Positions 1,207 through 4,881 of a stretch of DNA of 5,080 bases are shown here, one piece after another. The stretch's first letter is position 1, and every line of letters starts with the position of its first letter. The notes beneath the pieces are model-generated. The model was not told the DNA's origin and searched no databases. It saw only the letters and a program-made list of their open reading frames with translations. Source of the DNA: a virus. Made by a program: the position numbers and the translations under genes. The stretch lies in the IMG/VR virus record IMGVR_UViG_2700989228_000032. One strand, 5' to 3'.

Positions 1207-1243
1207 TTGACAATACCCCCCCCCACCCCCCCCCAGGTATAAT
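1207..1243 (+). promoter_or_regulatory. Sigma70-like promoter hexamers TTGACA (1207-1212) and TATAAT (1238-1243) with an abnormal 25-nt spacer
   Basis: Both hexamers match consensus 6/6 and sit about 33 nt upstream of the first gene of the ORF8-VP5-VP3-VP1-VP2 block. The spacer is ata+C9+a+C9+agg = 25 nt instead of 17+/-1, so function as sequenced is doubtful. Confidence 0.4.
1216..1234. repeat. Interrupted homopolymer CCCCCCCCC-A-CCCCCCCCC (G9-T-G9 on the minus strand)
   Basis: Read directly: C at 1216-1224, A at 1225, C at 1226-1234. I noticed no other C run longer than 4 in this AT-rich genome. Confidence 0.95.
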
Positions 1244-2172: not shown

Positions 2173-2279
2173 TGGATGGTTTACTTTTTGCTATGTTTTT
2201 TTTGATCTTAATGGATGTTGGACTTAATATTTACAGTCTAGTGCTGATTGCATCAGACTACAGAAAGGACGGTGAATGA
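2172..2279 (+). CDS. Untracked 35-aa hydrophobic ORF, a putative single-pass membrane peptide (candidate lysis or membrane-active protein)
   Basis: Hand translation: MDGLLFAMFFLILMDVGLNIYSLVLIASDYRKDGE. The ATG 2172-2174 overlaps the VP3 stop (TAATG) and the TGA 2277-2279 overlaps the VP1 ATG (ATGA). GGAGGTGAT at 2158-2166 fully complements the canonical 16S anti-SD, with GGAGG 9 nt before the ATG, the same geometry as the VP5-like gene start. Confidence 0.5.
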   Translation: MDGLLFAMFFLILMDVGLNIYSLVLIASDYRKDGE

Positions 2280-3970
2280 GTTTGTCATTTTCAAAAAATC
2301 TGATTGATGCTAACAGCTATTTTTCTACTTATAAGAGTGATCTGGAAAGACCACGTTCTCGGTTTGACAGAAGTTCTTCTATCAAGACTTCATTCAACGT
2401 TGGTGACTTAGTGCCGTTTTACCTCGATGAAGTTTTACCTGGCGATACCTTTGATGTAGAGACTAGCTTTGTGACTCGTCTACAGACTCTTATTACACCG
2501 CCGATGGATGATCTTTTCCTCGACACGTATTATTTTTTCGTTCCGTCTCGATTATGCTGGACGCATTGGAAAGAGTTTATGGGTGAATCTACAAGTGCTT
2601 GGACTTCTGATGTTGAATATCAGGTTCCTCAGCTGACGTTCTCTAAGGCTGATAAGACTGCCTTGCAAAAATCTTTGCTTGACTATTTCGGTGTTCCGAT
2701 TAATCCTGACGGTGTTCTTTCTATCAGTAGACTTCCGGTCAATGCTTACAATTTGATCTGGAACGAGTGGTTTAGAGATGAGAATTTACAAGATGAAATT
2801 CTCGTTGATATTGACGATGGTAATGTAGAGTTTGACAAGACTAATTCTGCAAAAGGCGGTGCTTTGCTTAAAGTTAATAAGTTACACGACTATTTTACTT
2901 CTGCTCTTCCTCAGCCTCAGAAAGGCGAAGATGTAACGATTAGCTCGTTGTTTGGCGATTTGCCGGTTGTCTCTCGCAGTAAAGAGCATTTTGTAGCTGG
3001 CTCTCCTGAAATGTCTCCCGTTTTCGTTCGTCGTTCGAAGAATGGAGATCCTTTAGCTGGTGAATTCTATTCTACTACTAGCACACCATCGCTTCCGTCG
3101 CATCCTAATCCTTACAGTGTTTTTAAAATTCATGGACCATTTTCTGGTTCTGACGATGGCGTTGGAATTTCGTTTTCTAATCTCTATGCTGACCCCTCCG
3201 GTGCTGATCCGCTTACTGTGAATAGTCTTAGACTTGCTTTTGCTACTCAGCAGATGCTTGAAACTGATGCTCGCTCCGGTTCTCGTTATATTGAACTTTT
3301 GCGCGGTCATTTTGGCGTTATTTCCCCGGACGGTCGCTTGCAGCGTCCTGAACTACTTAGTGCTAACCGTACACGTATCAATGTGCATCAGATTGTTCAG
3401 CAGTCTGAATCTGGTGAAACTCCGTTGGGAACAACGGCTGCTATGTCTCTGACTTCTAATACGGATAACAGTTTTACTAAATCTTTTACTGAACACGGTT
3501 TCGTTGTTGGCGTGATGTGTGCCAGATATAATCATACATATCAGCAAGGATTGCAGCGCATGTGGTCACGTAAGAATCGTTTAGACTACTATTTTCCGAT
3601 TTTAGCCAACATCGGTGAACAGCCGATTTATACTCGTGAAATCTATTATGAAAATGATGGTTTCGGCAGTCTTGACGAAGTGTTCGGTTATCAGGAAGCC
3701 TGGGCAGATTATCGTTATAAAACGTCTGTCGTTACAGGTGAAATGAGATCTGGTATTACTAATTCTTTGCAGTCTTGGCATTTTGCCGACTATTATGCAA
3801 AAAAGCCTACATTATCATCTGAATGGATTAAGGAAGACAAGACCAACGTTGACAGGACTCTTGCTGTAACTAGTAAGGTTGCTGATCAAATTTTCGGTGA
3901 TTTTTATGTCAAAAACTTGACTACTCGAGTTATGCCGGTTCATTCTATCCCGGGCTTGCACACTCTGTAA
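2276..3970 (+). CDS. VP1: Major capsid protein VP1 (phiX174 F-like jelly-roll capsid protein, gokushovirus type)
   Basis: 564-aa ORF. SD GAAAGGA (2263-2269) lies 6 nt before the ATG. Family-typical motifs (from memory): RSRFDRSSSIKTSFNVGDLVPFYLDEVLPGDTF, HDYFTSALPQPQKG, RYIELLRGHFGV...QRPELL. Confidence 0.95.
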   Translation: MSLSFSKNLIDANSYFSTYKSDLERPRSRFDRSSSIKTSFNVGDLVPFYLDEVLPGDTFDVETSFVTRLQTLITPPMDDLFLDTYYFFVPSRLCWTHWKEFMGESTSAWTSDVEYQVPQLTFSKADKTALQKSLLDYFGVPINPDGVLSISRLPVNAYNLIWNEWFRDENLQDEILVDIDDGNVEFDKTNSAKGGALLKVNKLHDYFTSALPQPQKGEDVTISSLFGDLPVVSRSKEHFVAGSPEMSPVFVRRSKNGDPLAGEFYSTTSTPSLPSHPNPYSVFKIHGPFSGSDDGVGISFSNLYADPSGADPLTVNSLRLAFATQQMLETDARSGSRYIELLRGHFGVISPDGRLQRPELLSANRTRINVHQIVQQSESGETPLGTTAAMSLTSNTDNSFTKSFTEHGFVVGVMCARYNHTYQQGLQRMWSRKNRLDYYFPILANIGEQPIYTREIYYENDGFGSLDEVFGYQEAWADYRYKTSVVTGEMRSGITNSLQSWHFADYYAKKPTLSSEWIKEDKTNVDRTLAVTSKVADQIFGDFYVKNLTTRVMPVHSIPGLHTL

Positions 3971-4019
3971 TATTTTACAACATTGTGTAACGTTCATGCT
4001 TAATTATATGTCACGGTAG

Positions 4020-4041
4020 GGACAGATGATCTCATCTGTCC
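4020..4041 (+). other. Stem-loop ggacagatg-atct-catctgtcc (9-10 bp) in the VP1-VP2 intergenic region
   Basis: Arms 4020-4029 and 4032-4041 are exact reverse complements. A second, shorter GACAG/CTGTC hairpin is at 4062-4076. Confidence 0.7.
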
Positions 4042-4081
4042 TTGATTAACTATTAATACGAGACAGGCAGTCTGTCAACTT

Positions 4082-4103
4082 CCTTTTTTCTTCGGAAAAA
4101 AGG
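4082..4103 (+). other. Stem-loop ccttttttc-TTCG-gaaaaaagg (9 bp, UUCG-type tetraloop); possible attenuator or terminator after VP1
   Basis: Exact reverse-complement arms at 4082-4090 and 4095-4103, with loop ttcg. It is followed by tggttta, a weak U tract. The 3' arm overlaps the only SD-like sequence (AAGGTGG) available to ATG 4119. Confidence 0.6.
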
Positions 4104-4151
4104 TGGTTTACAGGCTGAATGGCTTGTATTATCTCGAAAGGATGTGATACA

Positions 4152-4823
4152 ATGACTACTGATCAATTATCTAATCAGTTATCAAATATTGCTTCTCAGA
4201 ATACGGCGAAAAGTCAGGAATTTGCTCGTGAAGAAATGAAATTCAATTCTGCAGAAGCACAGAAAAATAGAGATTGGCAAGCGCAGCAGTCTGCAACTGC
4301 TCATCAGCGTGAGGTTATCGATCTCCAAAAAGCTGGACTTAACCCGGTTTTGTCTGCCGGAGGCTCTGGCGCACAAACCGGCTCAGGAGCTACTGCATCC
4401 GGTGCGAAAGGTGAAACAGATAATTCTGTTGTGCCTGCTTTGGCTAGTATTATTGTCAATCAACAGAATAATGCGAATCAACAAGCTATTGCTCAGATAC
4501 AAAGAGACGCAACTCTCGAGGCTGCTCGTATTCATCAGTCTACCGCTTTACAAGCCGCTAACATTCAAGCTGATGCTTCACGGTTCGCAAGTATTAATTC
4601 TGCGAATGCTGCACGTTATGCTTCACAAATGAGTTATGCTGGGTCAAAATATGCTTCTCAGATGGGTTACGCTGGTACTAAGTATTCTAGTAACAAGAGT
4701 TCTGGTGCATCTCGATATGCAACTAATGTGAATTCCAAGACTACTAAACGTGGTCAGAATATGAGTCTTATTGGCTCACTTGCTGGTTCTGCTGCTGGAT
4801 TGCTTGGAAAAATTTTTGGGTAG
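4152..4823 (+). CDS. VP2: Minor capsid / DNA pilot protein VP2 (functional analogue of phiX174 H)
   Basis: The frame is that of track ORF 4119-4823. ATG 4152 has GAAAGGA (4136-4142) 9 nt upstream, the same geometry as VP4. The only SD-like sequence for ATG 4119 is 12 nt away and lies inside a hairpin, so I prefer 4152; 4119 is the alternative. AQKNRDWQAQQSATAHQREVIDLQKAGLNPVLS matches the conserved gokushovirus VP2 motif from memory. The middle is Q/A-rich and helical-looking, followed by a Gly-rich stretch. Confidence 0.85.
   Translation: MTTDQLSNQLSNIASQNTAKSQEFAREEMKFNSAEAQKNRDWQAQQSATAHQREVIDLQKAGLNPVLSAGGSGAQTGSGATASGAKGETDNSVVPALASIIVNQQNNANQQAIAQIQRDATLEAARIHQSTALQAANIQADASRFASINSANAARYASQMSYAGSKYASQMGYAGTKYSSNKSSGASRYATNVNSKTTKRGQNMSLIGSLAGSAAGLLGKIFG
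4581..4745 (+). repeat. Five consecutive 33-nt (11-residue) in-frame repeats in the VP2 C-terminal region; the two central copies are a recognisable tandem duplication
   Basis: Units: RFASINSANAA / RYASQMSYAGS / KYASQMGYAGT / KYSSNKSSGAS / RYATNVNSKTT. At the DNA level 4617-4649 (tatgcttcacaaatgagttatgctgggtcaaaa) and 4650-4682 (tatgcttctcagatgggttacgctggtactaag) differ mostly at third codon positions. Confidence 0.85.
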
Positions 4824-4833
4824 CCGATACCCA

Positions 4834-4862
4834 GACCAGTTACGTACTTGATGTAACTGGTC
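4834..4862 (+). other. 10-bp stem-loop gaccagttac-gtacttgat-gtaactggtc, 11 nt after the VP2 stop
   Basis: Exact reverse-complement arms at 4834-4843 and 4853-4862. The 9-nt loop contains ACTTGAT. Confidence 0.8.
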
Positions 4863-4881
4863 GGACTGACACCAAAAAAAC

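Follow-up and report, generated by a model that had tools for sequence, protein, structure and literature searches.

A putative principal promoter with a variable C-tract spacer in a gokushovirus-like gut microvirus

The stretch of viral DNA analyzed here (the window; 5,080 nt, IMG/VR record IMGVR_UViG_2700989228_000032) contains two perfect σ70-type hexamers ahead of the structural genes, and they stand 25 nt apart, separated largely by two runs of nine cytosines. The optimum spacer of σ70-type promoters is 17 nt, with a steep loss of activity outside approximately 15 to 19 nt. The question that the locus raises is what such an element could be: a promoter with an adjustable spacer, a structure-forming or replication signal, or a product of amplification or assembly.

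The window represents a microvirus circle of 4952 nt, the 5,080-nt record including a 128-nt terminal redundancy. It is gokushovirus-like by Pfam domain content, with a Phage_F capsid, a Chlamy_scaf scaffold, and an ORF2/G2P-type Rep on a circle of ∼5 kb, and every gene in it lies on the + strand. A search of Rfam returned zero family matches in the window. Its genes and the elements around the promoter are as follows.

53-1075, + strand, Rep (Pfam REP_ORF2-G2P), upstream of the promoter
1161-1184, + strand, hairpin resembling a terminator, AAGCCTAGGA-aaaa-TCCTAGGCTT, where the Rep gene region ends
1207-1212, + strand, -35 hexamer TTGACA, matching consensus at 6 of 6 positions
1213-1237, + strand, promoter spacer of 25 nt, ATA-C9-A-C9-AGG
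1215-1235, + strand, perfect tandem duplication of a 10-nt unit, ACCCCCCCCC, 2.1 copies (TRF, 100% match)
1216-1224, 1225, and 1226-1234, + strand, C9, A, and C9, respectively
1238-1243, + strand, -10 hexamer TATAAT, matching consensus at 6 of 6 positions, with an overlapping alternative, TAATAT, at 1240-1245
1261-1267, + strand, Shine-Dalgarno sequence AAAGGAG of the ORF8-like gene, read directly from the sequence
1276-1395, + strand, ORF8-like basic protein of 39 amino acids, the first gene after the promoter (ORF call, homologues in relatives)
1392-1688, + strand, VP5 (ORF call, homologues in relatives)
about 1660-2172, + strand, VP3 (Pfam Chlamy_scaf)
2172-2279, + strand, small ORF (ORF call)
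2276-3970, + strand, VP1 (Pfam Phage_F, E = 5e-144)
4119-4823, + strand, VP2 (ORF call)

Positions 1207 to 1243 read TTGACAATACCCCCCCCCACCCCCCCCCAGGTATAAT. The original prediction described two full-consensus hexamers ahead of the ORF8-VP5-VP3-VP1-VP2 block, and both the sequence and the gene map confirm this. A run scan likewise bore out the 25-nt spacer with its C9-A-C9 tract and the scarcity of such runs elsewhere: no C run of at least 5 occurs in the window apart from the two C9 runs, the longest other C run is 4, and the window has no G run of at least 5. C9 was observed twice against 0.00 expected from 200 shuffles, and the arrangement TTGACA-N12-30-TATAAT was observed once against 0.04 expected, with 7 of the 200 shuffles having one. 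There was no other + strand site in the genome with at least 10 of 12 hexamer matches. The hexamer scan yielded zero promoter candidates in the VP1-VP2 intergenic region, and the VP2-Rep region offered only matches of 8 to 9 of 12, at the Rep start or within Rep. Because no other + strand site reaches 10 of 12 and the VP1-VP2 region is empty, we infer that the locus is the principal σ70/σA-type promoter of this gut gokushovirus-like microvirus.

The position of the element is consistent with that assignment. It follows the hairpin at 1161-1184, which lies between the Rep stop codon and the -35 box and is predicted to fold at -10.5 kcal/mol (z = -4.8; 0 of 200 shuffles folded equally well), and it precedes the ribosome-binding site at 1261-1267 and the ORF8-like gene. 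Judged by hexamers and position, the locus itself qualifies as a promoter of the σ70/σA type; the window allele, with its 25 nt, falls outside the spacing of 17 ± 1 nt. An extended -10 of the TG type is lacking in the window, where TATAAT follows AGG, and at the proper distance ACCCCC stands in place of an alternative -35. In nearly all aligned relatives, too, the ORF8 homologue is preceded by an AAAGGAG-type site, mostly GAAAGGAG and in distant ones GGAGG or GGAGGT. As a separate observation, the Rep start region (37-56) and the ORF8 start region (1263-1279) share a string (GATATAAGTATATGGC and GAGATAAGTATATGGC), so that the two genes have an identical ribosome-binding context and identical first codons (ATG GCA).

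Relatives were collected by several routes and are referred to here by L numbers where they must be told apart. From IMG/VR, 28 genomes were obtained via the capsid protein and one via Rep. A single metagenome scan, with the hairpin as query, added just one contig, L002, whose sequence is identical to that of the L001 genome. Some 55 further contigs, all of them from ENA or Logan, came from exact-protein look-ups with ORF8 and VP5 homologues, and a distant-mode search with the promoter region provided two GenBank genomes of Dulem virus 137. For the window itself, the ORF8 exact-protein look-up led to L030 (Logan contig ERR140752_502); the same look-ups with its VP5, VP1, and VP2 gave no match. 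Megablast showed no close relatives among GenBank phages, just short capsid or hairpin matches, and an exact-flank pattern with a variable gap had no match in IMG/VR, which means that the collection searched does not include the window itself.

In the regions upstream of the ORF8 homologues, which are called at the matching location, about 50 relatives have a conserved core, TTGAC[AG]-NTA-C(n)-GG-TATA, at the equivalent place. The count comprises 41 copies from IMG/VR, ENA, and Logan, 2 from GenBank genomes, and a further 5 copies on 4 contigs. The core lies directly after a terminator-like hairpin and before ORF8-VP5-VP3-VP1; the hairpin occupies the matching position, and in L009, L010, and L021 it has a canonical stem and a T6 run abutting TTGACA. 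In an alignment of 20 representatives, TTGAC, TA, CCC, and GGTATA are invariant, and the intergenic flanks are unalignable in distant members. The conservation of the hexamers and of their place after the hairpin and before the ribosome-binding site and ORF8 in about 50 relatives supports reading the element as a promoter, as had been proposed.

The tract of the relatives is single, C7 to C10, and sometimes interrupted. The distance from TTGACA to TATA is 12 to 16 nt in 40 of 40 tabulated relatives and 25 nt in the window alone (41 copies), so the comparison of the homologous intergenic region, which the original prediction had put forward as a check, marks the 25-nt spacing as abnormal. In many relatives the best -10 hexamer (TACAAT, TATAAT, TATGAT, or TAGAAT; 5 to 6 of 6) is found 2 nt further downstream, and the spacers measured to the best -10 hexamer are 13 to 17 nt. 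No second doubled tract was seen among about 50 relatives or in an IMG/VR pattern scan that allowed up to 30 extra bases.

There are also relatives without the tract, with capsid proteins 83 to 86% identical. In the equivalent slot, L003 has an AT-rich promoter, TTGATA-16-TATAAT preceded by TGG, and L007 has another, TTGATT-15-TATATT. These ordinary microvirus promoters share the slot, the hexamers, and the downstream operon with the window-type promoter, and only the latter has the homopolymer. Since the tract-less relatives have an ordinary promoter at the equivalent place, the slot is a promoter slot. The C tract on this comparison is a feature of one promoter type, and the promoter module appears to be exchangeable between relatives. 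In L005 (about 40-130) and in L059-L064, upstream of ORF8, an 18-bp perfect palindrome, ATGTTTCACGTGAAACAT, replaces the C-tract promoter in one or two copies; it resembles the operator of a dimeric regulator.

The original prediction raised slipped-strand phase variation as a possibility, and clonal copies agree with an unstable tract length. Five clonal groups, identical elsewhere, each contain one indel, which is always in the tract. The window (C9AC9) and L030 (C10, 16-nt spacer) align over 1843 nt with 0 mismatches and one 9-nt gap. L051 (C9) and L052 (C8) have 0 mismatches over 2313 nt, as do L065-L068 (C10) and L069 (C9) over 1980 nt, with contigs of 4907 and 4906 nt, respectively. L087 (C7) and L089 (C9) differ over 2923 nt by one 2-nt gap and 0 mismatches. 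The two Dulem virus 137 genomes, PP511473.1 (C9) and PP511361.1 (C10), come from the feces of two lemur species and have 0 mismatches over the whole genome (5066 versus 5067 nt). The repaired state that had been predicted, in which loss of the A and 7 C would leave C11 and a 17-nt spacer, is arithmetically correct and has a near match in L030, otherwise 100% identical to the window, with its C10 and 16-nt spacer.

Other groups are uniform in tract length. L031-L040, from ten samples and up to 1.4% diverged, are all C8, and L055, L057, and L058, from three samples, are all C7. In the L041 group, the eight contigs that reach the site share one interrupted tract (ATATACTT-C5; ATATACTTC5), and interruptions also occur in L054 (C7TC) and L080 (C6TC). 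The interrupted tracts keep their total length and differ mostly by C-to-T changes, the expected form of decay on the packaged single strand. Instability is seen chiefly in runs of about 9 or more, as slippage would predict. The length differences are differences between assembled consensus sequences, with a technical share in those of ±1 possible; the variation is likely to be biological at least in part, given the 2-nt consensus difference and the concordance of independent pipelines. One contig with two tracts, L086 (ENA ERZ12298804 NODE_2089, 9854 nt), is a head-to-tail dimer of genomes ∼98.4% identical, both C7, and probably represents two co-occurring strains joined by the assembler.

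On the basis of these observations, we consider it reasonably probable that the locus is a principal promoter with a slippage-prone C-tract spacer that tunes transcription of the structural genes, and that the window represents its doubled allele, very weak or off. The hairpin at 1161-1184 would close the Rep region, with the promoter directly after it. That promoter would drive ORF8-VP5-VP3-VP1-VP2 and, by read-through around the circle, probably Rep too, and the hairpin upstream of it would end a transcription unit able to run most of the circle. Replication slippage in the C tract would shift the distance between -35 and -10 by 1 to 2 nt between otherwise identical genomes. Such shifts may turn structural-gene transcription up or down, a form of volume control that could reach OFF; an effect on transcription is expected from the σ70 spacing rule and from the precedent of Neisseria opc, considered below. 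In the window, a tandem duplication of A-C9 would have added about one extra helical turn, giving the 25-nt spacer and a promoter that is predicted to be very weak or off; the same genome also occurs in a C10 form with a 16-nt spacer. A counterpoint comes from several relatives with distances of 12 to 14 nt (14 to 16 nt when counted to the overlapping hexamer downstream). As 12 to 14 nt lies below textbook tolerance, weak alleles must be common in nature or else the spacing rule must apply differently here. The changes of ±1 to 2 nt in the relatives look more like volume control than like an ON/OFF switch.

A C9 parent whose A-C9 unit was duplicated in tandem would yield precisely the window allele, in accord with the TRF repeat, and that allele is probably a promoter-down allele of a hypervariable promoter. 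The doubled C9-A-C9 might instead be a product of library PCR, of rolling-circle or multiple-displacement amplification, or of assembly, the true genome having about C10 and a normal promoter; we regard this as possible, though somewhat doubtful. Amplification with phi29 polymerase is common for microvirus-rich viromes and can fix one aberrant molecule as consensus. L030, 100% identical otherwise, has C10 and the 16-nt spacer, the doubling was seen nowhere else in the relatives or the pattern scan, and a 25-nt spacer in what is apparently the only strong promoter would be strongly deleterious. However, reads with C9AC9 must exist, since De Bruijn assemblers do not invent k-mers, and a clean 10-nt tandem duplication is the type of product that slippage yields in vivo. 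Four other clonal groups, assembled by independent pipelines, also show tract differences of 1 to 2 nt, and the 2-nt difference between L087 and L089 is hard to ascribe to base-calling. The caveat of an assembly artefact that accompanied the original prediction does not hold for the tract as such, which is found again in assemblies of IMG/VR, ENA, Logan, and GenBank origin, and bears on the doubling. If the promoter is the sole one, the 25-nt allele would be nearly lethal, and its status as consensus would then need explaining, for example, by complementation by co-infecting genomes, by a rolling-circle amplification jackpot, or by artefact. A different doubt concerns function. The tract could be a tolerated mutational hot spot, its length drifting and selection removing bad spacings, with no switching function; this, too, we rate as conceivable without being likely. 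The interrupted tracts of L054, L080, and the L041 group are in effect locked with total length kept, which shows that these phages can do without a pure tract. An AT-rich spacer is used instead by close relatives, neither change being attended by evident harm, and the ten-sample C8 group is invariant. Against this, promoter spacer sequence is normally free to vary, yet a pure C7 to C10 run survives where the intergenic flanks have diverged beyond recognition, and C-to-T deamination on the packaged single strand should erode it. C7 alleles that are predicted to be weak (12 or 14 nt) are, furthermore, the consensus in both copies of L086 and in L087. The tract has several of the properties looked for in a contingency locus: it lies inside the -35/-10 spacer, where length would be expected to affect expression; it is polymorphic among genomes with 0 mismatches over 1.8 to 5.1 kb; and it is conserved and over-represented beyond chance, judging by the shuffles and the unalignable flanks. 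Adaptive phase variation is plausible; in the strict sense, it would call for switching that is frequent, reversible, and beneficial to the phage. That the poly-C tract is a selected contingency locus, maintaining through slippage and occasional duplication sub-populations with the single main promoter high, low, or off, is a stronger claim, and we hold it to be rather unlikely.

Two other readings set the promoter spacing aside. It is very improbable that the promoter or a single-stranded DNA function is controlled by structure, either a G-quadruplex of the G9TG9 template or an i-motif or H-DNA of the C strand. The window allele does satisfy the four-run rule (runs of at least 3 G or C, loops of 1 to 7) at 1216-1234, as originally noted, and C9AC9 is a mirror repeat. 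The rule was satisfied, however, in 0 of 66 homologous regions from relatives, as single C7 to C10 runs cannot form an intramolecular three-tetrad structure. The four-run motif is confined to the window allele and therefore is not the conserved function. A hairpin in the single strand, with an ATACC...GGTAT stem and the C tract as its loop, was marginal at -0.8 to -1.8 kcal/mol, with a z score that was not significant. It is likewise highly unlikely that the C tract on the packaged + strand serves as a start signal for host primase, that is, as a complementary-strand origin. Half of the CCC triplets on the + strand (14 of 28) are in the tract, distant relatives occur in Clostridia MAG contigs, one of them integrated, and the primase of Clostridioides difficile favors d(CCC), best with C on the 5′ side (PMC5204125). 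However, the genome has 14 further CCC sites, a plain promoter without any tract occupies the site in the relatives whose capsid proteins are 83 to 86% identical, and the idea would leave the invariant -35 and -10 boxes on either side of the tract unexplained. A hairpin at 4836-4866 is far more conserved and is a better candidate for a replication signal. The same hairpin and the tract-less relatives make a Rep nick site or origin at the tract unlikely.

That hairpin lies between VP2 and Rep and reads CCAGACCAGTTAC-gtacttgat-GTAACTGGTCGG. A 23-nt core of it is exact in 17 fetched loci, including relatives without the C-tract promoter. By megablast, it shows 96% identity over 49 nt to Dulem virus 137, the remaining genome being unmatched at the DNA level. 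We consider it a candidate replication-origin or other single-stranded-DNA signal.

A promoter whose spacer length is set by a slippage-prone tract, the reading that we favor for this locus, has counterparts in bacteria. In Bordetella fim and Haemophilus hif, the spacing depends on a simple-sequence repeat inside the promoter, with phase or level variation as the result. The homopolymeric tracts of Bordetella pertussis have reportedly been surveyed in one study. The fim promoter depends on a site for the activator BvgA, whereas no activator is indicated in the window, and hif has TA dinucleotide repeats in place of the C homopolymer found here. Closer in kind are opc (poly-C) and porA (poly-G) of Neisseria meningitidis, in which a C or G homopolymer between or next to the -35 and -10 boxes sets the spacing and gives graded transcription (PMC3447861). 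For opc, that paper, citing Sarkari et al. 1994, states that a change of the promoter poly-C from 11 to 12 raises expression. Both are bacterial surface-antigen genes with measured expression; the locus described here, in contrast, is the putative main promoter of a 5-kb single-stranded DNA phage, with two full-consensus hexamers and shorter tracts (C7 to C10). Contingency loci of phages, such as the poly-G tracts of Campylobacter phages and the repeats of T2 and T4 (bioRxiv 10.1101/2025.10.21.683753), resemble it in that homopolymer slippage leads to heterogeneity within a population. They differ in being mostly frameshifts in coding genes of large double-stranded DNA phages, whereas the tract considered here is in a non-coding promoter spacer of a microvirus; the words promoter and Microviridae are both absent from the text of that preprint.

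We found no description of a microvirus promoter homopolymer, or of gokushovirus promoter regulation, in the open-access literature, and a clade-wide hypervariable promoter tract in abundant gut phages apparently has been undescribed. Gokushoviruses are among the most abundant phages of animal guts, and to our knowledge almost nothing has been established about their gene regulation. A conserved, slippage-prone tract in a seemingly sole strong promoter would give a clonal phage population a simple way of varying in virulence or persistence, and the concept of contingency loci, drawn from bacterial surface genes and the coding genes of phages, would come to include promoters of viruses. If the contingency reading is correct, this would be the first virus with phase variation through promoter spacing, and genomes in quiet, plasmid-like persistence, or in slower and less host-damaging infection, could exist beside fully lytic ones. 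The doubled tract alone may be defective or artefactual; the clade-wide hypervariable tract is the testable feature, and tract-length spectra at the read level can be mined from existing data. For curation, the length of the tract should be treated with care, since microvirus assemblies that are identical elsewhere disagree at this one position.

A weak hint at the host range of the wider group points to Clostridia, as distant capsid relatives (42 to 46% identity) are found in Clostridia and Lachnospiraceae MAG contigs. In one of these, L071 (CAKQTC010000003.1, a 176-kb Clostridia MAG contig), the interval at about 3200-9500 has microvirus capsid and Rep genes beside a tyrosine integrase, the capsid showing 42% identity to the VP1 of the window. 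The flanking bacterial genes encode a pyrroline-5-carboxylate reductase, a PadR-family regulator, a methionine gamma-lyase, an IPP transferase (miaA-type), and MutL. To judge from this gene content, L071 is an integrated microvirus prophage in Clostridia.

Two further features of the window lie outside the promoter region. The VP1-VP2 intergenic region (3971-4118) contains three short hairpins in series, GGGACAGATGA..TCATCTGTCC, GACAGGCAGTCTGTC, and CCTTTTTTC-ttcg-GAAAAAAGG, which are largely kept in L001. At the C terminus of VP3 (2089-2156), a 12-nt unit, AAACCTGAGACT, is repeated ∼5.7 times and encodes (KPET)n. Relatives have a different, degenerate version of this repeat (L001: QKPDTQKPDPQKSDTQ), which makes it a second site of variable repeat length, in this case within a coding sequence.
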